The translations under genes and the position numbers were made by a program. The notes under the pieces are model-generated. The model had not been told where the DNA came from. It did not search any database and was given only the letters and a program-made list of their open reading frames with translations. Shown in pieces: positions 12,451-58,217 of a DNA stretch of 64,000 nucleotides; position 1 is the first letter of the stretch; each line of letters opens with the position of its first letter. The DNA comes from Gammaproteobacteria bacterium (GTDB lineage: Bacteria > Pseudomonadota > Gammaproteobacteria > Competibacterales > Competibacteraceae): NCBI GenBank assembly GCA_041396125.1, contig JAWKZG010000014.1, positions 116,229 through 180,228 of the forward strand, read 5' to 3'.

Positions 12451-14235
12451 ATGAAAATGACGACTGAGGAAGCCTTTGTTAAGGTCTTGCAAATGCATGG
12501 CATTGAGCATGCCTTTGGTATTATCGGCTCCGCGATGATGCCGGTATCCGATTTGTTTCCGCAAGCCGGTATCAGCTTCTGGGATTGCGCGCACGAAACC
12601 AATGCCGGGCTGATCTGTGACGGCTACACCCGCGCCACCGGCAAGATGGCCATGGCGATTGCCCAGAATGGCCCCGGTATCACGAATTTTGTCACTCCGA
12701 TCAAAACCGCGTACTGGAATCATACCCCGATGCTGCTGGTGACGCCGCAGGCAGCCAACAAAACCATTGGCCAGGGTGGCTTCCAGGAAGTGGAGCAGAT
12801 GGCGGTGTTTCGGGATATGGTCTGTTATCAGGAAGAAGTCCGCGATCCGTCCCGCATTGCCGAAGTGCTGAACCGGGTGATCGAGAAAGCCTGGCGCGGC
12901 TCGGCACCGGCCCAATGCAACGTGCCGCGGGATATGTGGACCCAGGTTATCGATATCGAACTGCCACAGATTGTGCGCCTGGAGCGCTCACCGGGTGGTG
13001 CAGAAAGTATCGCGCAGGCTGCCAAGCTGCTGTCAGAGGCAAAATTTCCGGTGATCCTGTCCGGTGCCGGCGTGGTGATCGGCGATGCGATCCCCGAGTG
13101 TGTGGCTCTGGCCGAGCGGCTGGATGCGCCGGTTTGTAGCGGTTATCAGCACAATGACAGTTTTCCCGGCTCGCATCCGCTGGCCTGTGGGCCGCTGGGC
13201 TATAACGGTTCCAAAGCGGCGATGGAGCTGATCGCCAAGGCGGATGTGGTATTGGCCCTGGGCACACGTCTCAATCCGTTTTCGACCCTGCCCGGTTATG
13301 GCATTGATTACTGGCCGAAAGAGGCCCGGATTATTCAGGTTGACCTCAATCCCGACCGGATTGGCCTGACCAAAAAGATTTCCGTAGGCATTTGCGGTGA
13401 TGCCAAAAAAGTTGCGCAACAATTACTCGAACAACTGGCTCCGAGTGCTGGCGATGCGGGGCGTGAGCAACGCAAAGCGCTGATTCATCAAACCAAATCA
13501 GCCTGGTTGCAGGCCTTGAGTTCAATGGATCATGAAGAAGATGATCCCGGCACGACCTGGAACGAGCGTGCCCGCAAGCGCGATGCCGACCGGATGAGTC
13601 CGCGTATGGCGTGGCGGGCTATTCAGGCAGGTCTGCCCAAAGACGCGATCATTTCCAGCGATATCGGTAATAACTGCGCCATCGGTAATGCCTATCCGAC
13701 CTTTGAAAAAGGCCGAAAATATCTCGCCCCCGGCCTGTTTGGGCCTTGCGGTTACGGCTTTCCGGCTATCATCGGTGCCAAAATCGGCTGTCCTGACGTG
13801 CCGGTGGTCGGCTTCGCCGGAGACGGCGCGTTCGGTATTTCCATGAACGAAATGACCTCCATCGGGCGCGAGGAATGGCCGGGCATCACCATGGTGGTCT
13901 TCCGCAATTATCAGTGGGGCGCGGAAAAGCGCAATACGACATTGTGGTATCAGGATAATTTCGTCGGCACCGAACTCAACCCGGAATTCAGCTATGCAAG
14001 GGTCGCTGAGGCTTGCGGTTTGCGCGGTGTCTCGGTTACCACCCAAACCGAACTCACCGAAGCCCTGCAGACAGCCTGCAAAGCGCAAAACGAGGGCGTG
14101 ACAACGTTTATTGAAGTTATCCTGAACCAGGAACTGGGCGAACCCTTCCGGCGCGATGCCATGAAAGCACCGGTAAAGGTTGCCGGCATTAACCGTGCCG
14201 ATATGCGCCCTCAACAAGGCGCGCAAACAGACTGA
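12451..14235 (+). CDS. xsc: Sulfoacetaldehyde acetyltransferase-like ThDP enzyme
   Basis: 594 aa; N-terminus MKMTTEEAFVKVLQMHGIEHAFGIIGSAMMP typical of Xsc; ThDP-binding GDGAF motif. Confidence 0.7.
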   Translation: MKMTTEEAFVKVLQMHGIEHAFGIIGSAMMPVSDLFPQAGISFWDCAHETNAGLICDGYTRATGKMAMAIAQNGPGITNFVTPIKTAYWNHTPMLLVTPQAANKTIGQGGFQEVEQMAVFRDMVCYQEEVRDPSRIAEVLNRVIEKAWRGSAPAQCNVPRDMWTQVIDIELPQIVRLERSPGGAESIAQAAKLLSEAKFPVILSGAGVVIGDAIPECVALAERLDAPVCSGYQHNDSFPGSHPLACGPLGYNGSKAAMELIAKADVVLALGTRLNPFSTLPGYGIDYWPKEARIIQVDLNPDRIGLTKKISVGICGDAKKVAQQLLEQLAPSAGDAGREQRKALIHQTKSAWLQALSSMDHEEDDPGTTWNERARKRDADRMSPRMAWRAIQAGLPKDAIISSDIGNNCAIGNAYPTFEKGRKYLAPGLFGPCGYGFPAIIGAKIGCPDVPVVGFAGDGAFGISMNEMTSIGREEWPGITMVVFRNYQWGAEKRNTTLWYQDNFVGTELNPEFSYARVAEACGLRGVSVTTQTELTEALQTACKAQNEGVTTFIEVILNQELGEPFRRDAMKAPVKVAGINRADMRPQQGAQTD

Positions 14236-14318
14236 TCATCTGTTATTGAGTACAGCCCGTTTAACGGGCTGTGCCAATAGTCTAAACGGTCGGCAATGCT
14301 GCACTTTAATTGTTTGTC

Positions 14319-14399
14319 ATTCCCGCGCAGGCGGGAATCCAGTGGCACTACACTCTTCACCATCATCTAAACTGTCGTCATTCCCGTGCAGGCAAGAGT
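14319..14399. repeat. Two dRS3-like inverted-repeat units (ATTCCCGCGCAGGCGGGAAT; second copy degenerate) separated by ~40 bp (NIME-like)
   Basis: Perfect ATTCCC-N8-GGGAAT palindrome at 14319-14338, related copy 14380-14399; related copies at ~26106, ~26600 and ~26824. Confidence 0.7.
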
Positions 14400-14537
14400 C
14401 CCGAGCGAAACGCTGGGATTACGCTTCGCTTCATCACCAGCCTACTTCATCCCGGTCTACGCGGGCTTTTTTAAGGTGTACATCGTAAAATGACGCTTAC
14501 TAAACTGGAAATGAATGAAAGGTTAAAACGGCTAATC

Positions 14538-15098
14538 TTAATCATTCAAATTTATTTTGGCTAACTGGAATGGGAGCAATTTCCTTTCATTATCTAGTGT
14601 CACAACCTCGAGTTCATGAAAGAGGCTGGCATTTAAATACTTGTAAGTCCATAGATAATTGAACTCGTGTTTTTCCGCCTCATATCTATCCGACACGATA
14701 ACTACTTTCAAAATCTTCGCCATACGGATTGCCATATAACAGAGCGCGCAAGGCTCTCCTGAAGCAATTAATGTTGCTCCTTTTAAAGAAAAGTCTTTTT
14801 CATTCTGTGACGCTTCTCTTATCGCCTGAATTTCAGCGTGTGCGGTACAATCCAGGTGCCTGGCGACTTGATTTACTCCTTTGCCAATAATCTCTCCATT
14901 CTGGTTAACGATAATAGCTGCAAACGGCAAACCACCTGCCTTGACATTGCTAATAGCCAAATCAAGAACGTTTTCTCCACATTTTATGAGAAGTTCATCA
15001 ATAATATGGTCACACATAGGCGATCTCATTGCTTGACGATAGAGCTGGGGTTGAAATACTAAGTTCTGCTGCAATACTTTCGGCTCGATTTTTTGCAT
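14538..15098 (-). CDS. Nucleoside deaminase (cytidine/deoxycytidylate deaminase fold; TadA/GuaD-like) with ~60-aa C-terminal extension
   Basis: CTAHAEIQAIREA (HAE) and ASGEPCALCYMAI (PCxxC) zinc-binding motifs; low-GC context. Confidence 0.75.
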   Translation of the reverse strand: MQKIEPKVLQQNLVFQPQLYRQAMRSPMCDHIIDELLIKCGENVLDLAISNVKAGGLPFAAIIVNQNGEIIGKGVNQVARHLDCTAHAEIQAIREASQNEKDFSLKGATLIASGEPCALCYMAIRMAKILKVVIVSDRYEAEKHEFNYLWTYKYLNASLFHELEVVTLDNERKLLPFQLAKINLND

Positions 15099-15440
15099 TG
15101 GCTACTGACATGCGATGTCTCTCGTCACCAAATTCTTGGTATTCAGAGGCAATCTCATACATTGTGTCCACCCCTAAATATTTACTCAGTGTCCGTAGGT
15201 GCGGTACCAAGTGACCAGAATCTTCTCGTATTGCGCCTTTTTCAAAACCAAACTCTCCGCTGGAGGTCACTATGATCAATGTCTTACCCGAGAGTATAGG
15301 CCGCAACGGGAAGTCCCCTCGTGAGAGATCAAAATCAAACGTTTTGTTTATACGTACAATTTGATCAAACCACGCTTTTAGCTGAGCCGGCATACCGTAG
15401 TTATACATAGAGGAATCAATATAACATTGGCCGTTGCCAT
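15010..15440 (-). pseudogene. FMN-dependent NADH-azoreductase (AzoR-like) C-terminal fragment
   Basis: MYNYGMPAQLKAWFDQIVR...LSGKTLIIVTSSG matches AzoR residues ~95-200; N-terminal ~90 aa missing/replaced. Confidence 0.6.
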
Positions 15441-15846
15441 CATAGCCATCAGTTGATCTGATAGTGCCAGCCCTCTTTCTGCGCCGGGGTTCTTTCTTCT
15501 GTGGGTAAACACCGCGCCAATCCAATCAGGTAATGAAATCCGGTGGATTTCACGCCAACATCACGATAGATATATCGAGTTTTTCAGGCCGATTCTGTTT
15601 CCATATGTGTCAACAAATCGGAGAGCGATATTTTTCGATATGGAATCGTGATCCGGGTTTGGGTTGTTCGCAGCTCTAACGCTTGAATCTATGTGTAATA
15701 ATGCTCATGTTCATTACCTTAGTTGATTAATGACAGGCGCTATTTTGTAAGTCTGTATAGAATAGTACAAACGAAAAAGTTACACTTACAGATGAATTTA
15801 AATCATCTATGCTATCGATGATTAGTGGTTAGTTTGGAGATTAAGT

Positions 15847-16268
15847 ATGCAGGTATCGTTACAGGCGCTGAAAGCCTTTGAGTCGGCTGCCCGTCAGGGA
15901 AGTTTTAAGTTGGCTGCAGAAGAACTTTCGCTGACGCCCACAGCCATTTCACACCACATTAGCAACCTGGAAAGTCGGTTAAATGTGAATTGTTTCATCG
16001 ACTGGGAAGGCGGATATCACTAACCGGAACAGGTATCAGATTAGCTAAAGCAACCGGACGGATTTCCGGAAAATCTGACAACGCTTTGGAAGAGGTGATG
16101 AAGGCTGGCAGTGCGGTCAGGGTGACGACGACATCATCATTAGCAGCTATGGTGCTAATCCCTTCCCAGCATGAATTTGAACAAGCTAACCCTGATATTT
16201 CTATGGAAATATCGACCGGCGAGTCGGTCGATAGCCAATCATATATCATTCCAATTCGGTCTTGGTGA
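15847..16268 (+). pseudogene. LysR-family transcriptional regulator, frameshifted and truncated
   Basis: HTH region MQVSLQALKAFESAARQGSFKLAAEELSLTPTAISHHISNLE then frame change near 15990; only ~140 aa total. Confidence 0.65.
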
Positions 16269-16844
16269 TGCCTTCAGTCGCTGAGGATTCTTGATGTCAT
16301 TAGATCTGAGTCATTCGAATGTATTTGGTGCTTATAATGACGTCTCCTTCTTGGCCTAATGAACCCATAACCTCTTTTACAACGGAGGAAAAATAAATCG
16401 TTACCGGATCCCTCCACTAGGCGCTTGGCTGGAAAAAATGGGCTGATGGGTCTAATATTAAACTCAAAATTTGGATCAAAGAGCGATCCAGCAGGCTATG
16501 GCAGGAAACGGACTTGTGTTCTGTTCCAGACGCTGACTAAAAGGCTGTTAAAATCTAACCTTCTACAACAATTTGAAACTCGATCAGTCTAATCAGACTT
16601 TTGCTATTACATACCAAATAAAGACAGCTTCGAAACTAGAAGTGCAGCCAGATTTATACATTGGATCGAAGATATTTTGAACCAATAATTCGTGCGGGCA
16701 CTTCTGGCTAACTGAGTATCCTCTAAAGCAAAATACCTGCATAACAAGTTGCAGCACACGGAAAAATTACTCGCTGCGCTCCCACTTCCAGAGCGTGGCA
16801 GAAACACCAACCGCTCGCAATGAGCGGCCTAGGGTGAATGTTTC

Positions 16845-17462
16845 GAGGACAGGCAGCTAGGAGTTATTAATCGGTGACAAGAGCTCAAGTCCATTAAGAG
16901 GCCCATTAAGCTCCATCAGACGTCCTGCAACAGCCAAAGAGCCGAGCGCAATTGGATGTAAGCCAAGTTCACCGATGAGTGTTTCTACAGTTGCCACTGC
17001 CGAGGGATCATCGCCCGCCAAAATAGAACACGTCTAACACTCGGCTCATGCGGTGCAAAGATTTTCAAAAGGCAGTGTGTTAAATGCCTTTACGGTGCGA
17101 GTGACGGTGCGAGCCTGGAAACAATCTCGCTACCCGAGTCGCCCTTTAAATCACCGACACGATAATCTGGTGCGTAGCTGAGAAATATATTGGTTGTGAT
17201 CACTAGAATATGTCCACCCCAATCCCTTTCCGGGTGAGCATCCGCACTTTAAGCCAAGGAACTGCAAGGAAAAACAATGTCACGTTTGCAGGCTTCGGTA
17301 ACTGACGCGGCGGTTAATCGATCATCTATATCCGCCAGTCGGTCTTGCAAACTTTCGCGCCCGCGGCTGTTAGCCACCAGCACTTCGGGGGCTGACGGCG
17401 ACGAACTGGGTCGCCAGTGTACGCCCAATTGTGGATGCGCCAATAATTCCAATCTTCATGGC
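16845..17462 (-). pseudogene. NAD(P)-binding oxidoreductase (NADPH-dependent F420 reductase-like) with frameshifts
   Basis: Minus-strand MKIGIIGASTIGRTLA Rossmann motif (17462 downward), frame changes to ...VLVANSRGRESLQDLA..., further fragment ~16845-17040. Confidence 0.5.
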
Positions 17463-17604
17463 ATATTCTCCAAAAAATCAATGATAGTAAGCGGGGATTT
17501 CAGGCTTTCGCTGAACGCCGCCCCTCCTTTTTGTCGGTGGGGCGGTTGCCTTCCATTTATGTTTCACGCAGACCAAAAACAGTGGTTTGCCTGGACGACA
17601 GCGA

Positions 17605-18354
17605 TCAGATTTGATTCATTCCGCCGTCGACAAACAGCTCAATCCCGTTGATAAAACTGGCGTCATCGGATGCGAGGAACAGCACGGCATTAGCAATGTC
17701 TCGGGGTTGACCGATACGGTTAGCAGGGATTTGTTCAATCAAAGCGTTCTTGATGCCCGCGGCCTGTTCACCGCCACCGAACAGATCGTCGAGGCCGGCA
17801 GTGTCAGTCAAACCAGGGCTGACAACATTGACACGGATATTCCGATCCTTGAGGTCCAGAATCCAACTACGGGCAAAGTTGCGCACAGCGGCTTTGGACG
17901 CAGAATAGACGCTGAAATTCGCAGTGCCCGCAGTGCCCGTGGTGGAAGATGTCAAAATGATTGAGGCACCGTCTCGCAGCAGTGGCAAAGCCTTTTGAAC
18001 CGTGAACAGCGTACCCTTCACATTGGCGTCGAACGTCTTCTGATAGTGCGCTTCGGTGATCGCGCCAAGGGGTAGCAGCTCGCCGCCACCGGCATTGGCG
18101 AACAGTACGTCGATTTGTGAATGACGTTGCTGAACAACATCGTAAAGCTGATCGAGATCTTCAAGATTGGCCGAATCACAGCGCACGCCGGTGACATCAC
18201 CACCGATCGCCTTTACCGCAGCGTCAAGCGATGCCTGGCGCCGTCCTGTAATAAACACTGATGCACCCTGGGAAGCGAACGCTTTAGCCGTGGCCAGACC
18301 TATACCGCTGGTGCCTCCGGTGACGATGACGACTTTGTTTTCAAAATTACTCAT
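17605..18354 (-). CDS. SDR-family oxidoreductase
   Basis: TGGTSGIG cofactor motif, YSASK catalytic motif. Confidence 0.9.
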   Translation of the reverse strand: MSNFENKVVIVTGGTSGIGLATAKAFASQGASVFITGRRQASLDAAVKAIGGDVTGVRCDSANLEDLDQLYDVVQQRHSQIDVLFANAGGGELLPLGAITEAHYQKTFDANVKGTLFTVQKALPLLRDGASIILTSSTTGTAGTANFSVYSASKAAVRNFARSWILDLKDRNIRVNVVSPGLTDTAGLDDLFGGGEQAAGIKNALIEQIPANRIGQPRDIANAVLFLASDDASFINGIELFVDGGMNQI

Positions 18355-18445
18355 GGCCTATCTCCTGATTGTTGGGCAAGACCGCCTTGCCACGTAAGAT
18401 CAGCTTACATTTGGAACAAAAAGTGTTGTAGTAGGCAAAAATGGT

Positions 18446-19396
18446 GTGAAGCGTTCTATAATTAGAACGATGAAAACGGATTTAAATGATTTTGCTTATT
18501 TTGCTGAGGTCGTAACTCATGGTGGGTTTGCGGCAGCTTCGCGTGCCCTGAAAGAACCCAAATCCAAGTTGAGCCGGCGCGTTGCCCGGCTTGAGGAGCG
18601 CCTGGGGCTTCGACTCATTGAGCGTTCCAGTCGTCGTTTTCGCGTGACCGACGTCGGGCGCTTGTTCTTTGAGCGCTGCAAGGCCATTCAATTGGAAGCA
18701 GAGCAGGCAGAAGCCCTGGTGGCAGAGGCGCAGTCTGAACCGCATGGGCGTATTCGCTTCAGTTGTCCCACCGGTATGATTGAAGTCATCTCAGATTTGG
18801 TGCAAAGCTATTTGCACCGATACCCCAAAGTGCGTTTGCAATTGCTGGCGACCGACAGGCCGGTCGATCTCATCGAGGAGCGAATTGATTTGGCGTTACG
18901 GGTTCGCGTCGCGTTGACCAGTGATGCTGAATTAACAATGCGCAGCCTTGGTAGATCAACGCGTATCCTGGTTGCGAGACCGGAGCTGGCAAATCAATTG
19001 CGCACCCCTGAGCAATTAGCGCAACGCTCAATATTGGCAACGAATGACATAGATAGTGAAACTGAGTGGACCCTTGAGAGCCAAGATGGAAAAACCATGA
19101 CATTACGTCATGAAGCTCGATTCGGTTGTGGTGACATGACCGCTGTGCGTGACGCAGCAATGGCTGGATTGGGTGTGGCGCTTTTGCCTTATCATGTATG
19201 CCGGAAGTCCATGAGTGAGGGACAACTCACTCGGGTGTTGCCGGAATGGCGTGGGCAGCAAGGCCTCGTGCATCTTGTTTTTACCACTCGGCGCGGCTTA
19301 CCACCATCGGTGCGAGCTCTGATTGACCTTCTTGCTGCGAGATTTCCAGACGATATTTTGGATGCTCCCGAAGCAGAAAGCCATAGTGCCGTATAG
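18446..19396 (+). CDS. LysR-family transcriptional regulator (divergent from SDR gene)
   Basis: HTH LNDFAYFAEVVTHGGFAAASRAL; LysR substrate-binding domain; start probably M at 18473. Confidence 0.85.
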   Translation: MKRSIIRTMKTDLNDFAYFAEVVTHGGFAAASRALKEPKSKLSRRVARLEERLGLRLIERSSRRFRVTDVGRLFFERCKAIQLEAEQAEALVAEAQSEPHGRIRFSCPTGMIEVISDLVQSYLHRYPKVRLQLLATDRPVDLIEERIDLALRVRVALTSDAELTMRSLGRSTRILVARPELANQLRTPEQLAQRSILATNDIDSETEWTLESQDGKTMTLRHEARFGCGDMTAVRDAAMAGLGVALLPYHVCRKSMSEGQLTRVLPEWRGQQGLVHLVFTTRRGLPPSVRALIDLLAARFPDDILDAPEAESHSAV

Positions 19397-19499
19397 CGTG
19401 GAAACCAATCGTAATACGCATGTGTTTTGTACATTATCGTACAACCAGCCCTTTCAAGGTGAAAAAATACAACATTAAAACAATAGCTTGCAACATTAC

Positions 19500-19808
19500 T
19501 TATAACCTGACTAGTTTGACTAGCAGCTTCCCAAACAATCAGAATATTGGTATATCAAGCAGTTACGATGGCGCAATTTGAGTCATCTTGAAAGTGCTGC
19601 TGATGTAACTCACAGGTATCATCGTTTCCCGAGTTTTCTGTAAATCCGATATCTGGGAAGAAGGATTTTGCAATAGAGAAGCCTTTGCCGCTTGGAACGA
19701 ATGGCTTCAGGCTGGTTAGTTTCATGATGGTTTACTTTTTTTTGCTGACATCTGATTTTAATGTAATCGTCCTGATACGAATCCGTTAACGATACCTGAT
19801 CGAGTGAT
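19500..19808 (-). pseudogene. Highly degraded integron-integrase (intI) 5' remnant
   Basis: Minus-strand translation TNKSPKSLDQV... parallels MNKLPILLDQV... of the intI at 58091; nucleotide similarity to 57990-58091 continues; start codon mutated (ACG). Confidence 0.4.
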
Positions 19809-19839
19809 TTGGGTGACTTATTCGTCCGGAAAATTTTAG

Positions 19840-19960
19840 GTACGTATAAAATTTATGTGAATTTTATCTTTCTGAATTTTATTGCTTTTATTGCTTTTAT
19901 TGCTGGGTGTTGACATTAGAAATTATGGGGGTCTATTTTGGCGTCTGTCTAAATTTAGTT
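19840..19960 (+). promoter_or_regulatory. attI-like region A with Pc-like promoter (TTGACA 19910-19915, TATTTT 19934-19939) ending at G|TT crossover (19958)
   Basis: ~80% identical to 58093-58217 next to intI; identity ends exactly after GTT as expected for attI x attC junction; contains 3x tandem TTATTGCT. Confidence 0.6.
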
Positions 19961-20042
19961 CGTCGCCATCAGAGAAAATCAGTAAGGTGACAAATTTAGG
20001 GTTTTCATCTCATACGCATGGGACCATAGCCGCGACTGGGTA

Positions 20043-21122
20043 TTGGCTCTTGCAGAGCGGCTTCGCAATGATGGAATCGACATTGTGCTCGATCAATGGG
20101 AAACGGTTCCCGGCGATATGCTGCCCAAGTTCATGGAATCCGCAGTTCGTGAAAGCGACTACGTGCTTGTTGTCTGCACTCCTTCGTATAAGAAGAAATC
20201 GGATGATCGAACAGGTGGAGTCGGCTACGAAGGGGACATCATGACCGCAGAGGTCTTCGCTCTCGAAAAGCGAGCGAAGTTTATCCCACTCCTCCGCGAA
20301 GGTGACTGGCGAGCGGCGTCACCGAGTTGGCTGCTGGGAGCCTATTATCTCGACCTGCGAGGGGAGCAATACTCAAGTGACACTTATGGCGAATTGCTTG
20401 ACCTTTTGCTGGGGCGTCGCAAGAAGGCGCCTGACCTGGGGACGTCTCGACCATCCTGGGCTGAGCTAAGTCCGATTGAAATCGTGCAAATTCCCCTCTC
20501 TAGCGAACTCCCTCAATTCTCCAAGGACGGATGGCTTACGCTTATAGCTCACGCATTGGCTAAGACGTTTAGTGACCAGCCAACCACGCGATTCGTCGGA
20601 CTGCTATCGCAACGGATCGTCGAACGAGATGGCAACGAGTTCACGGTGGTATCTATGACTGCACCGTTTTCCAGATTCCTGAAAAGCTATAAACTCTCAA
20701 TCTCGTCGCTGATGGAGGCTTCGCTAAGGCGGGACAGACCGGCAATGGAGGAACAGAAGGCAGACCTTGCTGATACGCTTTCGAAGTGGCGATACCGAGT
20801 AGAAGTGGGATGCGGCGAATCCTGGACGGCAAATCAGTTTGTTGTGGATGCTGAAACGAAGCTCATCGAAGTCACACCTGCCACTCTGGATACAAAGCAA
20901 AAGAAATTTTGGCGACCAAAGTCGACCAGCGAAGTTCTTGCTTTGATTGCGCATCTGAGTAATCCAATTGTTCAAATGAACATTGATGGTCTGTTAGAAG
21001 ATCCGAGGTTGACTGATTTGGTGAAAGACCTTTTAGATCATAAATACGTCAATATGGATCGCCTCCATGTGGCTTTGTCAAATCCTGAACAGTGGGAGTA
21101 CTCTGGTGATGAGGACGTTTAG
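20043..21122 (+). CDS. TIR domain protein with ~230-aa uncharacterised C-terminal domain (cassette A1)
   Basis: In-frame FRVFISYAWDHSRDWVLALAERLRNDGIDIVLDQWE...DYVLVVCTPSY fits TIR alphaA-betaB pattern; TIR homology extends upstream to ~19995 without canonical start (TAA at 19983; listed start is TTG). Confidence 0.65.
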   Translation: MALAERLRNDGIDIVLDQWETVPGDMLPKFMESAVRESDYVLVVCTPSYKKKSDDRTGGVGYEGDIMTAEVFALEKRAKFIPLLREGDWRAASPSWLLGAYYLDLRGEQYSSDTYGELLDLLLGRRKKAPDLGTSRPSWAELSPIEIVQIPLSSELPQFSKDGWLTLIAHALAKTFSDQPTTRFVGLLSQRIVERDGNEFTVVSMTAPFSRFLKSYKLSISSLMEASLRRDRPAMEEQKADLADTLSKWRYRVEVGCGESWTANQFVVDAETKLIEVTPATLDTKQKKFWRPKSTSEVLALIAHLSNPIVQMNIDGLLEDPRLTDLVKDLLDHKYVNMDRLHVALSNPEQWEYSGDEDV

Positions 21123-21132
21123 AGAAATGAGT

Positions 21133-21216
21133 GACGAACAAAGCCGTGCACCGGAGCACCCATTCACGCGGTTCATGAATTCAAACTCTTCCGTTCGTGC
21201 CCGGTGACGGCAGACG
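21133..21216 (+). other. attC A1 (inverse core GACGAAC ... GTTAGGC)
   Basis: GACGAAC complements cassette start TTCGTC; R' GTTAGGC consensus; 84 bp. Confidence 0.55.
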
Positions 21217-21266
21217 TTAGGCTTGCGTCGAGAAAATCAATCAAACTTCAATAAAGGAAAAGAATT

Positions 21267-21476
21267 ATGGCAACAACCATGTTTTTTGAAGAGCTCGTTA
21301 AGTGCCAGGGCGGAAAAGAAGAAATGGATATAGAATTCGGTCGATCCTCATTTTACGAAGAGGATAGTATATATCTGAAGGTGGATGGAAAGTCCATAGT
21401 AATGGACCGAGCGACCGCCAAGAAATTTGTAGAGGCCGCCTCTGGAGTTGGTCACTATTTTGGTTTTATTGACTAG
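21267..21476 (+). CDS. Hypothetical 69-aa protein (cassette A2, gene 1)
   Basis: ORF with RBS aaaggaaaag upstream; no recognisable domain. Confidence 0.4.
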   Translation: MATTMFFEELVKCQGGKEEMDIEFGRSSFYEEDSIYLKVDGKSIVMDRATAKKFVEAASGVGHYFGFID

Positions 21477-21491
21477 ATACTGGGATTATAA

Positions 21492-21755
21492 ATGCCAAAT
21501 ATTGATTTCAAAGATGTTGAAGCAATAGATCCGTCCACAATGGCGGTGTCATTTCCCGCTACCGTAGATGGAGTGCAAATTCGATGTGTCATTTCCACAG
21601 AAGCTTTACAAGATCACTTTAATGCTATGATTGATGATCAATTGGATGTGTTTAAATCAAACAGATATAGTATTGAATGTAAGGCCAGAGAAGTAATTGA
21701 GAGCGGTCGCTATGAAGCAGGCGGCAGCATTTTGATTCGTTCATCTGATTTTTAG
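21492..21755 (+). CDS. DUF1488 family protein (cassette A2, gene 2)
   Basis: 87 aa; VSFPATVDGVQIRCVISTEAL pattern resembles DUF1488. Confidence 0.55.
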   Translation: MPNIDFKDVEAIDPSTMAVSFPATVDGVQIRCVISTEALQDHFNAMIDDQLDVFKSNRYSIECKAREVIESGRYEAGGSILIRSSDF

Positions 21756-21757
21756 GC

Positions 21758-21866
21758 CTAACAAATTGCTGCACGCGGACACATACTGCTACGCTCGTTT
21801 TTGTGTGTCGCTGCGCTCCATTTTACACAAAAACGTTCTCCGCAGTATGTGCCGGTGAGCAAGGCG
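21758..21866 (+). other. attC A2 (GCCTAAC ... GTTATGT), long imperfect palindrome
   Basis: Inverse core complements cassette start TTAGGC; stems ACACATACTGC/GCAGTATGTG and CGTTTTTGTGT/ACACAAAAACG. Confidence 0.5.
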
Positions 21867-21890
21867 TTATGTGCCAGTCGCGAGAATTCG

Positions 21891-22193
21891 ATGCACCTAG
21901 TACCTCAATGGGATGAAATCAGGTTGATCGGCCAGTCCCGAATTGTCGGGTTGACTATGTTAGTGCCGTTCATTGGGTACCTACTACTTTTCAATGAATC
22001 CATCTGGGAATACTTCCGACTATCAACCGACCTCGTTGGTATAAAGCAGATCGAACCTGAATCAACCATTCTACGATTGCACTTTTTGTACTATGGCCTA
22101 ACGTTGGTAGGCTTAGCATCACTCCTTTACCAAGCAGTCTGCCCTCATGAGATCAAGGAGCATGGAAACGGAGTATGCCTATGTGAGTGGTGA
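21891..22193 (+). CDS. Hypothetical membrane protein (cassette A3), overlaps next ORF
   Basis: Predicted TM helices (IVGLTMLVPFIGYLLLF, LYYGLTLVGLASLLY). Confidence 0.35.
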   Translation: MHLVPQWDEIRLIGQSRIVGLTMLVPFIGYLLLFNESIWEYFRLSTDLVGIKQIEPESTILRLHFLYYGLTLVGLASLLYQAVCPHEIKEHGNGVCLCEW

Positions 22194-22551
22194 GTCAACT
22201 CTGATGACTCACGCTCGCTTTGCGAGTCTGGTAAATCCCTACGAAGAAAAACTTACGGAGGAGCCAGAGAAGTACTCGGAGTTAGAAGCCTACGTAAGTA
22301 GCTACAAAAAAGCGTCCAATCCAACCATGGACGTCTATTCTTCGAAGGAAGAACTACGAAGCGAGACTGCGGAACTTGAGCGAACTGCGTTCATAAACAC
22401 GCTGAGCTTCAATTGGCGATATCTATGCTCCAAGCACTTTTACACCAGGTTGGCTGTTTCTGCCCTCTACTTTTCTGGGTTCAGCTTGGTGTTGTGGCCA
22501 TCAGCGGTAGTGTTCGTTCAAGTCACATCTGGAATTCTGAGAGGCACATAA
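22147..22551 (+). CDS. Hypothetical protein with C-terminal TM segment (cassette A3); may be frameshifted continuation of previous ORF
   Basis: 134 aa ORF, stop embedded in inverse core ACATAAC. Confidence 0.35.
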   Translation: MRSRSMETEYAYVSGESTLMTHARFASLVNPYEEKLTEEPEKYSELEAYVSSYKKASNPTMDVYSSKEELRSETAELERTAFINTLSFNWRYLCSKHFYTRLAVSALYFSGFSLVLWPSAVVFVQVTSGILRGT

Positions 22552-22638
22552 CATGAAGTTGAAGTCGGACGTAGCAACCTGTCATCAAAATTGCTGCGCA
22601 ATTTTGCCGCCAGAACGACTACGCCGTTTAACTTGGTG
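22546..22638 (+). other. attC A3 (ACATAAC ... GTTAGGC)
   Basis: Inverse core complements cassette start TTATGT; 93 bp. Confidence 0.55.
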
Positions 22639-22664
22639 TTAGGCTATCAAGTAGGCATACAGCA

Positions 22665-23465
22665 ATGTTTGATAAGGAGTGGATCGAGAAAGCACAGAAG
22701 GTCACGGACGCGGAGTCCTGGGCTCATGGTGCCATGCTTGAACTAGATACCTCCGGTGGCATTTACCTCAACACACTTCGTATGTGGTATGAAGAATTTC
22801 CTGGATCAAAAAAGCAGAAGAAACCCCTACGACAACGGATCGAAAACTTTGGTAATGAAGACCACCTTGGTGGAGTAAACGAATTATCGTGGTGGAAATT
22901 TCTACAGAAAGGTAATTTCGGTGCTGAGCCAGTACCCACTGCTAGCAGCGCACGCCCAGATTTCAAAGTTCAGACACCGACAGAATTCTTCGTTGAAGTT
23001 TCAACGTTAAATGTTTCTGCTAATGAAAAGCAACAGATGGAAAGTGAAGGGGCTATTTCACTCAACCACGCGGAAACCCTCCGTCGCTTGTTGCTTAAAT
23101 CCACAAATGATAAACACGAACAGATGTCCTTTGCGTGCAACCAACGGCGCCCATGCTGCTTAGTGCTATTTGACTATATGACATGGAGCGCATTTGGCAC
23201 TCAATTTTTCCGCTATTTGGCAAGTTATCTTTTTCGCGAGAATGGAGGCTTCACGCAGCTGCCTACTGAACTATCTGCCCTTATCTATGTTGAAAGAAAA
23301 GTAATAGACGGGCACATTGGGTTAAGTCGTGATCGGTCAGCGGTGTACTACAATCCTAATGCGAAATACCCGCTCGCACCAGGAACATTCACTGAATTGC
23401 GGCAGTACTGGTACCAAATGGTGGAAGTCGAACCTCAATGCAAAGATTACTGGGTATGGCTGTAA
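22665..23465 (+). CDS. Hypothetical 266-aa protein (cassette A4)
   Basis: Clean ORF; possible nuclease-like RPDFKV...FFVEVST segment, unverified. Confidence 0.5.
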   Translation: MFDKEWIEKAQKVTDAESWAHGAMLELDTSGGIYLNTLRMWYEEFPGSKKQKKPLRQRIENFGNEDHLGGVNELSWWKFLQKGNFGAEPVPTASSARPDFKVQTPTEFFVEVSTLNVSANEKQQMESEGAISLNHAETLRRLLLKSTNDKHEQMSFACNQRRPCCLVLFDYMTWSAFGTQFFRYLASYLFRENGGFTQLPTELSALIYVERKVIDGHIGLSRDRSAVYYNPNAKYPLAPGTFTELRQYWYQMVEVEPQCKDYWVWL

Positions 23466-23481
23466 TTGTGGCTACGAGTTG

Positions 23482-23556
23482 GCCTAACAATGCCATTAAC
23501 ACGGACCCCAAAAAGCTACGCTGCGCTCCGCTTTGTGGGACCGGTTATGGCTGGCG
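23482..23556 (+). other. attC A4 (GCCTAAC ... GTTAGGC)
   Basis: Perfectly complementary R''/R' pair, 75 bp. Confidence 0.6.
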
Positions 23557-23581
23557 TTAGGCGTCACTAAGCGCTTCGGCA

Positions 23582-24055
23582 ATGAAATCTGAGTCCTATC
23601 GCGTTCGAGTCCTTGGCAGCTCTGACATTCAAGCAATGCGGGAAATGCTTGTCGCATTTGGCGAGGCCTTCGAAGACAAGCCGACTTACACCCAGCATCA
23701 GCCAACGGACACCTACCTCAAGGAGCTGCTCTCAAGCTCGACTTTCATCGCTGTAGCAGCGCTTTCTGAAGCAAAGGTCATCGGTGGCCTTGCGGCATAT
23801 GCGCTTCCCAAATTTGAGCAGGCCCGCTCAGAGATCTACATCTACGATCTGGCTGTACTAGAAAGCCATCGCCGCCAAGGCATTGCGACGGCGATGATTC
23901 AAGAACTCAAGAAGCTGGCCAAATCCATAGGCGCCTACGTCATCTTCGTTCAGGCAGATCATGGCGACGATCCGGCAATCAATCTCTATACGAAGCTCGG
24001 AGTTCGAGAAGATGTCCTTCACTTCGACATACTTCCTGGCGATGGTGACGCCTGA
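23582..24055 (+). CDS. Aminoglycoside 3-N-acetyltransferase, AAC(3)-I-like GNAT (cassette A5)
   Basis: Strong similarity to AAC(3)-Ia along whole length: [81 protein letters not shown]. Confidence 0.8.
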
Positions 24056-24115
24056 CCCTTCCATTGAGAGGTCGTTTTCCGGCCTACGGCCTCCAAGCGC
24101 CTCTCATGTCAAACG
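24051..24115 (+). other. attC A5 (GCCTGAC ... GTTATAC)
   Basis: Inverse-core-like overlapping stop codon; hairpin TTGAGAGG/CCTCTCATG. Confidence 0.4.
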
Positions 24116-24124
24116 TTATACATA

Positions 24125-24820
24125 ATGGATCCAAAGAAGCTGTTTATTGATGAGAGGTTAAAAGCCAATTGCGCCTATTGTGGTGCAGTCATGAATTCTA
24201 GGGATCACACTCCTTCTAAAGTATTCCTTGATGAGCCGTACCCAGAAAATCTGCCTGTCGCAGAAGCCTGCGCAAAATGCAATGGTGGTTTTTCTGCTGA
24301 CGAAGAGTATCTATCTTGCCTGATTGAGTGCGTAGTTCACGGGACAGCCAAGCCTGATGAAAGATTCAGAGATAAAGTGGCAAGAACTCTTGAAGCCCGA
24401 CCAGCCATCGCTAAACGAATCGAGAGTGGAAAGCAGTTGGATATTAGCAATAATCCAATTTGGCAACCGGAGGGGCCTCGAGTCAAGAATATTGTCCTGA
24501 AGCTTGCTCGCGGATACGTATCCTATGAGCTAGGGCTTCAGCATGTAGAAGAGCCGGTAATTATTGATATTGTGCCAAGTCCATGCATGACCGAAGATGA
24601 ATTAGAAGCTTTTAACACACTTGAGGAGCATGCTGGATTCCTATATCCAGAAATTGGCAGCCGTGCTTTCGTTAATTTACTGTCAGGAAAAGCCACAGCA
24701 TACGGTGGGTGGTATGTCGTGCAAGAAGGAAGATATCGATATGCCCTCGGTCAGTCAGCGGGTGATTGGGTGAAATTGGTGTTAAGTGAATATCTCGCAT
24801 GTCGCGTGGTTTGGGAGTAA
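24125..24820 (+). CDS. HNH endonuclease-domain protein (cassette A6)
   Basis: CAYCG...DHTPSK...CAKCN zinc-finger/HNH-like arrangement; 231 aa. Confidence 0.55.
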   Translation: MDPKKLFIDERLKANCAYCGAVMNSRDHTPSKVFLDEPYPENLPVAEACAKCNGGFSADEEYLSCLIECVVHGTAKPDERFRDKVARTLEARPAIAKRIESGKQLDISNNPIWQPEGPRVKNIVLKLARGYVSYELGLQHVEEPVIIDIVPSPCMTEDELEAFNTLEEHAGFLYPEIGSRAFVNLLSGKATAYGGWYVVQEGRYRYALGQSAGDWVKLVLSEYLACRVVWE

Positions 24821-24824
24821 TTAT

Positions 24825-24875
24825 GTATAACAAGGTGCCCAAGTTGGACGGCTTTGCCGGCCCTTGGCTTGGTAG
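24825..24875 (+). other. attC A6 (GTATAAC ... GTTAGAG)
   Basis: Inverse core complements cassette start TTATAC; short palindrome. Confidence 0.4.
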
Positions 24876-24920
24876 TTAGAGGAGAGTTAATGAATTGCCG
24901 GACTTGGAAACTGGATCTCA

Positions 24921-25860
24921 ATGGCGAATAAACCAGAAACAGCTTCAATCATACCGATACCTTCCGTGAAGAGGCTACTCAATGGCCCGAAGCGACAACA
25001 CTTTCTACCGAAATTCTACCTCGAAGGCTTTGCCATAGAGGATGGAATGGTCGGTGTTTGATCGGGAGTTGAACGAGATAAGGGTACAGCGGCCCGTGAA
25101 CACCTGCGTCATCGGACATTTCTACACAATGGAGGACTCAGGAGGGGCAAGGTTTCGACCTTGAACAATTGCTTTCCGAATATGAAAATAAGGCCAGTCT
25201 TGTTATTAAGAAACTGCGCCGCGCAGGAAGATATCAATGTGGACGAGCGGGCGGATTTTGCCATATTTGTAGCTTTAGCTGCATGCCGTACTCCTGACGT
25301 TGTGGATTCTCTTAAACTTTCAACTCCAACTTCATCAAAGATATGGCAAACCATATGTTTGCAGACGTTGACGGGGTTAAGGCACGAATTCGCGGCAAAT
25401 CTGACGTGCAGTTAACGGAGGAGGAACTGAGGCGGACGCACGCGCGCTTGTGGACTATGCGCAGAGCGGACGATATGAGGTAATTACGAACTGATGCGCG
25501 GGCCATTTGCATGGCGATGAAAATGGCTATGAGCATCGCGCCAATTTTGCAGGGCGTGACTGGATGGTTCTTCATCGTGATACCGAAAAGAAGTCTTTTG
25601 TGACCACCGATGCACCTGTTCTCCTAACCACGTTGGCTCCACGCAAGAAGAGCATTTGGGGTATCGGGTTCGGCAACATTGATGCCCTGGTACTGTTTCC
25701 CATGACGGAATCCTGCGGTTTGTTAATGTGCGGCACTGAGGGAGCACTGAGCACCGGAAACGTACAGATGCGGATAAAATACGCCGCATCAATTTGGCCG
25801 TCGCTGACCATTGCCAACGGTTTGTCGTTGGCCGTGACGAAGCGTTGGTTTGCTCATTAG
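24921..25860 (+). pseudogene. DUF4238 family protein with multiple frameshifts (cassette A7)
   Basis: KRQHFLPKFYLEGF and GHFYT motifs of DUF4238 N-terminus split across frames; later ORF 25507-25860 is the C-terminal part. Confidence 0.55.
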
Positions 25861-25936
25861 CAAATCGCTTATGTTTGGCAAACAAGAAGTGGCAACCCAA
25901 AATGCAAAGTACATAGATGACCTGAAATGAGGAAAA

Positions 25937-26035
25937 CTCTAACATTTGTGTCAAGTCGACGGGAATTTCGCTGGCGCTTCATTCCTGCTGCTTACCCATA
26001 CCGTTTGTCGCTACGCGGCGCAACCGGTCGTTCGG
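25937..26035 (+). other. attC A7 (CTCTAAC ... GTTCGGC), boundaries tentative
   Basis: CTCTAAC complements cassette start TTAGAG; TGTCAAG/CTTGACA stems. Confidence 0.3.
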
Positions 26036-26099
26036 CCTTGACAGAACCTGCTCCATTATCAGCGCTTGTATCTACAAAGATCCTTTCAGGCGATAATTA

Positions 26100-26180
26100 T
26101 CGTCATTCCCGCGCAGGCGTAACCAGTTCGGATCATTATCAGGAACATCTGATAGGCAGATCCAGACCGAATAAAGTGCC
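26100..26180. repeat. dRS3-like half repeat plus ~40-bp direct repeat copy 1 (TATCAGGAACATCTGATAGGCAGATCCAGACCGA)
   Basis: Nearly identical 38-bp sequence recurs at 26852-26890; ATTCCCGCGCAGGCG at 26106. Confidence 0.6.
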
Positions 26181-26211
26181 TTCGTGCTGGGTTCGTAATC
26201 TATATTCCTAA

Positions 26212-26364
26212 TTAATTACGATTGTTGCTGCCGCGGTGACCGGCCTGATGCTGCCAGTACTGATGCCAGGAAGAAAAGCCGTCGGGTGGTGATTTAAAGG
26301 AGATGGCGCAGGCCGATAAGCCAGTAATCAGTATCAGCGCCAGTGTAAAATTTCTCAGAATCAT
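26212..26364 (-). CDS. Possible small lipoprotein (~50 aa)
   Basis: MILRNFTLALILITGLSAC lipobox; weak. Confidence 0.25.
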   Translation of the reverse strand: MILRNFTLALILITGLSACAISFKSPPDGFSSWHQYWQHQAGHRGSNNRN

Positions 26365-26814
26365 AACTATAAACTCCTTTTTCAAATTAACTAAACGTCC
26401 GGTCAAATGTGTTTGCAACTGCCACAGTGATGCTCGTGGACAGACAGCGTTCTCGTGTAAAACGAACCGCCAACGCAAGATAAAATCCGACCGCGCGCTG
26501 ACTTCAGCGCGCATGTTTCTGATCTTTAGCTCAGAATAGCAATAAAGCGGCTTTTAGTCCCTGTAACCTGATTTCCCAATCCCTGGGGCATCTTATCCGT
26601 GTCCTTTGTCATTCCTGCGCGTCCCTGCACGGCGTCTGTCGGTTTAATAGCCGCTTGTCTGCTTGGCATCCTGTCCGTATTTCCACAGTGTTCCTTGCTG
26701 TGGGTAGAGGGAAGTTTACGCTGAAGGCGTCAGTGAAGGGTCAAGAAGTTGTTATATTTGCGTTGGTGCCACTGACGATTTTGATCATAGGCCGGCACTT
26801 TGCTGCACATCGAT

Positions 26815-26900
26815 CAGCGATTGGTATTCCCGCAGGCAGGAATACCGTCAAGTACCAGTATCAGGAACGTCTGAGAGGCAGATCCAGACCGATTCCTTCC
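26815..26900. repeat. Degenerate dRS3-like palindrome (ATTCCCGCAGGCAGGAAT) plus direct repeat copy 2
   Basis: See copy 1; located at the 3' end of the aldo/keto reductase gene. Confidence 0.55.
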
Positions 26901-26904
26901 AGTT

Positions 26905-27830
26905 CGCCGAACAATTCGTACAGCTTTTCTGACATCTGCCTGTGGCAGCGGCGGGCCGAGAATCGAATTGATATTGCTGGCCAGATGCGTCTGATCGCCG
27001 GTGCCAAACAGGATCACATCGGCACCGGGCTCATGGCGGGCAAAAGCGGTAGGCGGCATCAATCACACCGTCTGCGCCGTTTTCATGAATCAGAAAACCC
27101 AATGGGTTATCAGTTTGGGCTAGCCAGGCCGGGACTTGACCCGCATCGGCAAGTTCCTTCAGGGTGTCCTGCAACGTCCGGGGACACTGAAAATACTGCG
27201 TACCACAAACATCAGCAAAGTACCGATGCCTTTAGCCTGGGTATGCGGAAAGACCTTGCTGCGGGCTTTTTGATTCAGCATATGAAAGCCCAGCATGATC
27301 ACTTCCCAGCAATCATCTTCCTGCAGGGCGCGCTGCAGCATCGCCTGCGGGGCGTCATTAGGCGGTGATTCGGTGATGCCCAGATGGCGGATTTTGCCTT
27401 TGTCACGTTCTTTCAGCAGGGCTGGCACCAGCTCGGCCCGGACATAGTCGTACGCCCGAGGTTGTACCGCATGCAGATGAAATACATCAATATAATCCGT
27501 TTGCAGCCGTCGCAGCGATTGTTCCAGACTGGCGATGACATCACTGGCGGGTAATAACGTGTCACCCTTTTTGATCAGGGCCTTGGTCGAGACGACTACG
27601 GTATCGCGTGGCACTGCCCGAATGGCTTCGCCGACGATATCCTCGGTGCCATAAGCGGTCGCTGTATCAATGAAATTTACGCCCAGATCCAGCGCTGCGC
27701 GCACCAGCGCCACCGAGTCAGCAGTGCTTTTGCCGGTGGACTGTCCCAGACGGCTGCTGCCGCCACAGCCGAGCCCTGCAACGCTGACTTTCAGACCGGT
27801 TTTACCCAGTTCGGTGTACTGCATAATCAC
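26905..27830 (-). pseudogene. Aldo/keto reductase with apparent frameshifts near 27160 and 27065 (or sequencing errors)
   Basis: N-terminal 223 aa intact (27159-27830); C-terminal AKR motifs FARHEPGADVILFGTGDQTHLASNI appear in a different frame (26880-27062). Confidence 0.5.
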
Positions 27831-57416: not shown

Positions 57417-57497
57417 GCGTTTTGCAATGCCCAGACCGGCAAAAAGAGAATTGATTTTTGCCGGTTTCACGATGTTACAAACCACTACAGCGGTTAG

Positions 57498-58091
57498 TCA
57501 GGTCGATACCGGCGTAGCTGGTATTAAGTGTTTGGCCTTAATTAGTTGGTCTTTTAAGGGTAGTAACAGATTTTCCGGAAGCATAGTCACCCGGTCCTTA
57601 TTACCTTTGCCTTCGCGAACGATGATTTCGCGCCGCTCAAATTCAATATCTTTGACGCGTAACCGCAAGCTTTCCAGCAAACGCATGCCTGTGCCATAAA
57701 GCAAACTTGCCACCAGCCACATGGTACCGTTCAATTCCGCTAGCAATGCCGACACTTCGCGTGGTGTCAACACCACCGGCAATCGTTTGGCTGCTTTGGC
57801 TTCCACCATTTCTTTCAACCACGGCAAATCGATATTGAGCACTTCTTTATAGAGAAAAAGTAAAGCCGATTTAGCTTGATTTTGGGTCGAGGCCGAAACC
57901 TTGCGTTCAACTGCCAGATACGTCAAAAAGGCTTCCACTTCTTTGACACCCATATCTTTGGGATGGCGCTATTGGTGGTACAAGATGAAACGCTTTGCCC
58001 AGTCGGCGTACGCGTCTTCGGTCCGAATGGAATAATGTTTGACACGTATCCGGTGACGAACCTGGTCAAGTAGTATTGGCAGTTTATTCAT
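57498..58091 (-). pseudogene. intI: Integron integrase intI: in-frame TAG (57969-57971) and loss of C-terminal half
   Basis: [84 protein letters not shown]... is the IntI N-terminal fold; only ~190 of ~320 aa present; catalytic RHRY C-terminal region absent. Confidence 0.75.
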
Positions 58092-58092
58092 C

Positions 58093-58217
58093 CGCAAAGT
58101 TTTAGGTTCGTATAATATTAATGTAAAGTTTATCTTTATGAATTTAATGGTTTTTATTTTTTGACGTTGACATTATAAAGTATGGCGGTTTATTTTTGCG
58201 TCTGTCTAAATTTAGTT
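58093..58217 (+). promoter_or_regulatory. attI-like region B with Pc-like promoter (TTGACA 58167-58172, TTATTT ~58189-58194); crossover G at 58215
   Basis: Divergent from intI start; ends GTT|AGCC; ~80% identical to 19840-19960. Confidence 0.6.

Follow-up and report, generated by a model that had tools for sequence, protein, structure and literature searches.

A gene cassette encoding a SEFIR-domain protein with a C-terminal module that appears to be rare lies at the head of a degraded integron in contig JAWKZG010000014.1 (assembly GCA_041396125.1), part of a metagenome-assembled genome (MAG) of a gammaproteobacterium of the Competibacteraceae. The stretch analysed, referred to below as the window, comprises 64,000 nucleotides (positions 116,229 to 180,228 of the forward strand), and all positions given here are counted from its first letter; the features of the cassette and its platform are collected in Table 1. 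The explanation favoured, with modest confidence, is that the cassette carries a bSEFIR-type defence, in which a single protein acts by abortive infection, and that the start of the gene has been damaged in this genome.

Within the TIR superfamily, the N-terminal domain falls in the SEFIR branch. The Pfam families TIR_2 (6.4e-23, 82 bits) and SEFIR (1.5e-14, 55 bits) were both matched over residues 5-137, with no family further on, and the bSEFIR model of PADLOC was matched with 200.9 bits (1.5e-59) over residues 5-180; the part of the profile covered was positions 40-203 of 412, so that only the first 180 residues of the window protein are accounted for. Among structures in the PDB, the SEFIR protein of Bacillus cereus (BcSEFIR; 5Y8E/5Y8F) was found at E 7e-20 and classical TIR structures at 4e-7 or worse. 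The full-length AlphaFold (AF2) model (pLDDT 88.7) gave 5Y8E as the top Foldseek match (E 6e-9, TM 0.73), followed by the TIR NADases SPARTA, SARM1, and AbTir, and also by the SEFIR domains of IL-17R/Act1. In comparison with 119 homologues, 54 columns are conserved in at least 90%, and the window protein retains 53 of them. Two of the residues conserved at this level are D36 of the LDxW motif (BcSEFIR D37) and E82 of the GGVGYE motif (BcSEFIR E83); D36 would correspond to the published residue D40 of bSEFIR. The models for ThsB and ThcB4 were matched weakly (NCBIfam ThcB4, 22 bits vs. a cut-off of 220).

A preliminary description of the region, made from the sequence alone, had proposed a cassette-borne, TIR-like protein as a candidate single-gene antiphage system. 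A cassette-borne protein of the TIR superfamily and of single-gene antiphage type is indeed what the Pfam and PADLOC bSEFIR matches and the one-gene cassette point to, and the structural comparison agrees, with a TIR-superfamily fold and Glu82 at the catalytic position. The label TIR-like holds for the superfamily and has to be narrowed to the SEFIR branch; likewise, the antiphage type stands and the candidate status does not, the protein falling under the known bSEFIR model on comparison with PADLOC. Judged by its sequence, the window protein is a variant of the described bSEFIR defence and not a new candidate system.

The gene sits in a true integron gene cassette. Homology between the window and three independent metagenome contigs (L001/L002, L003, and L013) starts at G|TTCGTC (19958-19964), and that with L003 ends at the attC core G|TT (window GTTAGGC), beyond which the flanks are unrelated; closely related cassettes are seen in four different flanks. 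The SEFIR open reading frame (ORF) is the sole ORF of the cassette, neighbouring cassettes are unrelated, and six further cassettes, which were delimited by eye, follow on the same strand to position ~26045. The R'' core GACGAAC and the 5' end of the cassette, GTTCGTC, are reverse complements, as in a circularisable cassette, and the bottom strand of the attC site folds as a bulged hairpin (-19 kcal/mol, z -1.6). A strict regular-expression scan for attC sites (RYYYAAC…GTTRRRY, with arm matching) found none, because the cores of this array deviate, GACGAAC being an example; the sites given here were picked out by eye, with homology across contigs as confirmation.

Upstream of the cassette, positions 19760-19960 are ~80% identical to the region between the integrase at 58 kb and its first cassette, with a shared TTGACA, and GCGTCTGTCTAAATTTAGTT is identical in both platforms and runs to the crossover point. 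The promoter-like site (TTGACA 19910-19915, 18-nucleotide spacer, TATTTT 19934-19939) agrees with the consensus at 10 of 12 positions; consensus matches of this quality are within the number expected by chance, and the site is regarded as a candidate promoter. From these homologies, the SEFIR cassette is read as the first behind an attI region and a promoter-like site that are conserved between platforms. A distance of 38 kb separates the two homologous integron platforms, which have the same orientation; the integrase of each is degraded. The sole integrase-like sequence detected in the window by tblastn (57492-58091, minus strand; array B) is a pseudogene: codon 41 is a stop, the sequence ends at about residue 198, and the catalytic C-terminal half is missing. 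No integrase gene adjoins the SEFIR cassette, where only ~11 codons are recognisable. Because the integrases are degraded, the platform is unable to move cassettes by itself.

The C-terminal module taken alone had no match in the models of Pfam, NCBIfam, or PADLOC, and no analogue was found in the PDB; its AF2 model is compact and confident (pLDDT 89.6, pTM 0.87). A phmmer search of 1.84e9 cluster representatives returned ~25 full-length module matches (E 1e-13 to 1e-3), in all of which the module is C-terminal, the host proteins having 270-530 residues. Local iteration gave a clean family of modules ~215-230 residues in length, carried by ~30 protein clusters, with six invariant residues (F203, D288, S315, E368, W370, and Y372 in the numbering of the 378-residue frame) and the signature …TSE…LLD…, ending in R-x-N-x-x-D-P-E-E-W-D-Y. 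A profile search of a set of 5.8e9 proteins, limited by its word prefilter, gave 7 matches only, and a degenerate DNA pattern for EEWDY(I/V)NP gave 1 true member (Tunturibacter, L010) among 5 loci.

The module is preceded by different N-termini in different proteins: a SEFIR domain in the window protein, in P0002 and P0003 (89-90% identical to it), and in P0071, P0075, P0120, and P0153 (Mucilaginibacter celer); a classical TIR domain in P0148; a SIR2 domain in P0133; an Mrr-type nuclease in P0132; an alpha/beta hydrolase in P0134; transmembrane helices in P0121, its Tunturibacter relative (L010), and P0131; and short N-terminal tails in several members. P0075 is located in an integrase-carrying island, and P0153 adjoins a transposase. 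The common SEFIR proteins of 313 residues have a C-terminus unlike the module (hhalign probability 0.2%); C-termini apparently shared with them (BLASTP coverage 69-80%) were rejected as alignment drift on the same comparison. In many members that lack an enzymatic N-terminus (P0124, P0121, P0131, P0138, and P0145), a repeat of the form G-(D/N)-x-S-P-G-(I/V/F)-V-x-(G/R)-(D/N)-(F/Y) was seen just before the module.

The C-terminal part of the window protein is thus a rare, recurrent module that is found also in proteins with other effector domains and is not unique to this protein. The module is probably the sensor or regulatory half, and SEFIR the effector, because relatives keep the module but differ in the killing domain, and because single-protein abortive-infection systems usually combine a constant C-terminus with an exchangeable N-terminus. 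It is put forward, tentatively, that these proteins may form an unrecognised single-protein abortive-infection family, absent from Pfam, PADLOC v2, and the PDB, in which one compact sensor of new fold drives SEFIR, TIR, SIR2, Mrr nuclease, alpha/beta hydrolase, or membrane helices; the window cassette would then be a SEFIR-armed member.

The protein is encoded by 378 codons that stand open directly after a TAA, from position 19986 to the stop codon TAG at 21120-21122 (plus strand), without internal stops or frameshifts. The peptides VFISYAWD, LAERLRNDGIDIVLDQWE, and DYVLVVCTPSY are all present in this frame, and an NCBI protein from a Gammaproteobacteria MAG (P0001) is identical to it, being annotated with 371 residues and beginning MSYAWD. 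Purifying selection still acts on the gene body: of the changes assigned to the window branch, 54 are synonymous and 23 nonsynonymous (omega 0.13, similar to that of the relatives).

The ancestral start codon has been destroyed by a one-base deletion and a substitution. The relatives in L001, L002, L003, and L013 begin ATG AGT GGC AAG TCT AAR GTC TTC, and the window bases aligned to this start are (T)A-A GGT GAC AAA TTT AGG GTT TTC, the window reading TAAGGTGAC at 19983-19991; relative to the ATG, the window has lost the T and carries A in place of the G, and the T just before makes this a TAA. An in-frame extension upstream, or a fusion with attI, is ruled out because three in-frame stops occur between 19950 and 19985. 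The earliest in-frame ATG, GTG, or TTG is the TTG at 20043. Beta-strand A comprises residues 5-9 (RVFIS) in the secondary structure of the AlphaFold model, none of 121 homologues starts within it, and this first strand cannot be obtained whole from any remaining start codon. With the ancestral ATG destroyed, the window copy is probably silenced, the full-length protein being made in traces or not at all, and a phage challenge under the native cassette promoter (Pc) would probably fail unless the ATG were restored. As the gene body shows purifying selection, the loss of the start would be recent, or else some translation would persist.

These results bear on further claims of the preliminary description. 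That the TIR homology extends upstream of the first canonical start, to the TAA at 19983, is correct, that start being the TTG of codon 20; the suspicion of a damaged start is confirmed by the relatives' ATG, which aligns with the TAA. The ~218 C-terminal residues do lack a motif recognised by Pfam, NCBIfam, or PADLOC; described there as a novel domain, they are absent from curated libraries but recur in ~30 clusters and so are not unique. Of the placement as first cassette of array A under Pc, the first position is upheld by the attI homology, while Pc amounts to a conserved consensus match and not to a demonstrated promoter. As a minor point, the end coordinate given there, 21133, is 11 bases beyond the stop codon.

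Several points weigh against a start-damaged bSEFIR defence. The source is a MAG, so that a consensus error at the start is possible, and no second occurrence of the lesion sequence was found; the NCBI annotation treats the frame as a gene from the ATC at 20007; and the omega of 0.13 on the window branch would be equally compatible with continued translation of the gene by some unusual route. Searched by itself, the module gives no match to any defence model, the bSEFIR profile included, even at E up to 10, and the surroundings of the genes of this family are no obvious defence islands. On Pfam alone, moreover, TIR_2 outscores SEFIR, contrary to the rule by which the authors of bSEFIR selected their proteins (a SEFIR match stronger than the TIR match, judged by HHsearch); which of the two is stronger depends on the library, the PDB favouring SEFIR and Pfam favouring TIR_2.

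Were the lesion an artefact of MAG assembly or consensus, the real gene would have a normal ATG, as all relatives do. The lesion occurs in one record only, and its exact sequence is absent from the JGI metagenomes. Such an error is nevertheless very improbable: between the cassette boundary and codon 6, the whole stretch of ~40 bases shows many differences from all relatives, as in real divergence and not as in a single error, which argues against a simple assembly error, and the rest of the gene differs from the relatives by 83.5 to 90.3 synonymous changes and so represents a distinct lineage rather than a mis-assembled copy.

Expression from a non-canonical start, as a low-level defence NADase, has more in its favour and is still judged unlikely. 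Initiation would be at the ATC at 20007, which is preceded by a weak TAGGG and from which NCBI annotates P0001, or at the GTG at 19987, in which case a -1 slip on A_AAT_TTA would enter the SEFIR frame at K3 and give M-T-K-F-R-V-F-I-S-Y. The constraint on the gene body (omega 0.13), its 378 codons without internal stop or frameshift, and the intactness of 53 of 54 conserved SEFIR residues would all suit a gene in use, and the GTG and the heptamer are both in the sequence. An ATC start, however, loses V6 and the conserved F7, as 0 of 121 homologues do. ATC is also a very poor initiator in studied bacteria. The slip is unlikely and post hoc; no stimulatory element was identified, and there is no second example, the relatives having a plain ATG. 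A low output of a toxic effector just behind a promoter could pay off, a cost of defence cassettes in first position having been reported (10.1101/2024.07.02.601719).

Under the favoured explanation of a bSEFIR-kind defence, the activated protein would hydrolyse NAD+ through its SEFIR domain, in which Glu82 (GGVGYE) takes the position of the catalytic Glu of TIR NADases. The 218-residue C-terminal module would sense infection or control assembly, and, upon activation, the SEFIR domains would associate and use up NAD+, which would abort phage replication. It is improbable that SEFIR is here no NADase and acts instead as an assembly or signalling domain, as in the IL-17 receptor and Act1, or as a Thoeris-like signal generator, the killing being left to the module or to an unlinked partner. 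SEFIR domains of animals are adaptors, interaction roles were proposed in the paper on the B. cereus protein, the substitution D40A, which abolishes defence by bSEFIR, hits a residue predicted for SEFIR-SEFIR interaction (10.1101/2022.05.11.491447), and the models of ThsB and ThcB4 are weakly matched. The cassette, however, has one gene, with no ThsA-like or other partner adjacent, and the ThcB4 score is a tenth of its cut-off; at least 90% of homologues have the Glu at the catalytic position of TIR; in the module family, recognised enzymes or membrane segments stand at the N-terminus, which is thereby marked as the effector position; and for bSEFIR itself, depletion of NAD+ by the N-terminal SEFIR domain is reported (10.1101/2024.02.11.579819).

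The closest described system is bSEFIR of Bacillus sp. NIO-1130, a single-gene defence that protects B. subtilis from phi29 (Millman et al. 2022; 10.1101/2022.05.11.491447). The window protein resembles it in the N-terminal SEFIR domain, in being a single gene on mobile DNA, and in the residues D36 and E82, and by analogy depletion of NAD+ is expected; it differs in that its C-terminal 218 residues lie outside the family model, and that the window copy has no start codon and is borne on an integron cassette. BcSEFIR shares the fold and ~32-35% identity over 141-155 aligned columns, but most of the close relatives found for it have only ~140-200 residues, too few to accommodate a module of 218. 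DSR1 and DSR2 also have an N-terminal NADase under a C-terminal sensing region, and the module member P0133 has SIR2; the DSR proteins, in contrast, have ~1000 or more residues and helical-repeat sensors, to which the compact alpha/beta module of ~215 residues shows no detectable similarity.

Integron cassettes are already known as carriers of phage defence, and a cost is reported for those in first position (10.1101/2024.07.02.601719). The integron defence cassettes described (BRiCs in mobile integrons, and those of chromosomal integrons) resemble the present one in being one-gene defence cassettes, in first position behind a platform promoter; here, in contrast, the platform is environmental and of chromosomal type, its integrase is degraded, and the gene is damaged at its start. 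A text search of the paper on BRiCs gave no mention of TIR. Lamassu is similar in its menu of exchangeable effectors, the SIR2 and Mrr N-termini of two module members matching the N-terminal part of LmuA; it was rejected, as the array has no LmuB/SMC partner gene and the module has no match to the C-terminal part of LmuA. Thoeris was rejected likewise (no ThsA-like gene nearby; ThsB/ThcB4 scores far below the cut-offs), as was CBASS (partner genes absent; scores below threshold).

The integron setting of a defence gene is therefore not new in itself. What would be new, judging from sequence comparisons, is that an integron cassette carries a SEFIR effector together with a C-terminal domain that is rare, unannotated, and apparently modular; a SEFIR-type system would thereby be added to the defence functions of such cassettes, in an environmental, non-clinical platform. 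The module family is a more interesting lead than the window copy itself. If the module is a sensor, it would be a small trigger domain of a new kind, serving defences that act by NAD+ depletion or by killing in other ways, and its natural swaps (SEFIR, TIR, SIR2, nuclease, hydrolase, membrane helices) would offer a ready test of how one sensor can be coupled to many effectors. Loss of the start with the body intact, in the cassette position where expression is highest, agrees with the idea of an in-place silencing of costly defence cassettes, although ordinary early decay is equally possible. The case also calls for caution with annotation, the public record listing the window gene as a normal one from its ATC start.

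Table 1 Features of the SEFIR gene cassette and its integron platform in the window. Array A is the array headed by the SEFIR cassette; array B is the array at 58 kb. L001, L002, L003, and L013 are homologous metagenome loci.
Feature	Position	Strand	Basis or remark
Integrase gene, 5' remnant of array A (ATG changed to ACG; ~11 codons)	19793..19825	-	TNKSPKSLDQV vs. MNKLPILLDQV (58-kb remnant)
attI-like region with promoter-like site	19826..19958	+	~80% identity to 58093-58216 beside array B intI; recombination G at 19958
SEFIR gene cassette, first of the 7 cassettes of array A (19959 to ~26045)	19959..21216	+	Cross-contig homology
TAA in place of ancestral ATG	19983..19985	+	Alignment with L001, L002, and L003; L013 also ATG
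Frame of SEFIR domain and C-terminal module	19986..21122	+	ORF reading, Pfam, PADLOC, match to P0001
GTG in +1 frame, then A_AAT_TTA (19992-19998)	19987..19998	+	Read from sequence; speculative
SEFIR (TIR-superfamily) domain, residues 5 to ~150	19998..20435	+	PADLOC, PDB, Foldseek, conserved columns, AF2
ATC start of public annotation	20007..20009	+	Would drop V6 and conserved F7 of beta-strand A
First canonical in-frame start, TTG (codon 20)	20043..20045	+	Would drop beta-strand A and start of helix A
C-terminal module, ~218 residues, predicted sensor/regulatory	20466..21119	+	Family alignment, phmmer, AF2
attC site	21133..21222	+	R'' GACGAAC 21133-21139; R' GTTAGGC 21216-21222; hairpin fold; L003 conservation to GTT

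Other cassettes of array A were inspected for their contents. Cassette 2 (21267-21755) has two small ORFs of 69 and 87 residues in a toxin-antitoxin-like layout, the second belonging to DUF1488 (2.8e-18). Cassette 4 (22665-23465, plus strand) has an ORF of 266 residues that belongs to no Pfam or NCBIfam family; short, weak PADLOC matches to PD-T7-5 (1.5e-5) and PD-T7-1 (2e-4) were confined to residues 223-258, and the cassette may be another defence-related one. Cassette 5 (23582-24055, plus strand) encodes an AAC(3)-I aminoglycoside N-acetyltransferase (NF033083, 230.8 bits vs. an equivalog cut-off of 200), a resistance-type cassette within the integron of an environmental MAG. Cassette 6 (24125-24820, plus strand) has an ORF of 231 residues with paired CxxC motifs (CAYCG…CAKCNGG), resembling HNH or zinc-ribbon nucleases, and without match in Pfam, NCBIfam, or PADLOC. 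Cassette 7, the last (24878-26045), contains broken, overlapping ORFs only; by reading alone, these are taken to resemble a frameshifted gene of the 'HFLPKFYL' (DUF4238-like) kind, which would make it a second decayed cassette gene.

On the other side of the SEFIR cassette, an ORF of 56 residues (19555-19725, minus strand) has no Pfam hit and presumably resembles the N-terminus of a glyoxalase/VOC protein, again by reading only; it occupies the place where the array A integrase would continue, so that part of the integrase gene may have been deleted or replaced. The G+C content is 0.43-0.53 over positions 14000-27000, compared with 0.54-0.62 in the 13 kb flanking this block on each side. The low-GC block reaches ~6 kb to the left of the integron, with fragmented ORFs at 14.5-17.5 kb, and its extent suggests a larger acquired or decaying island.

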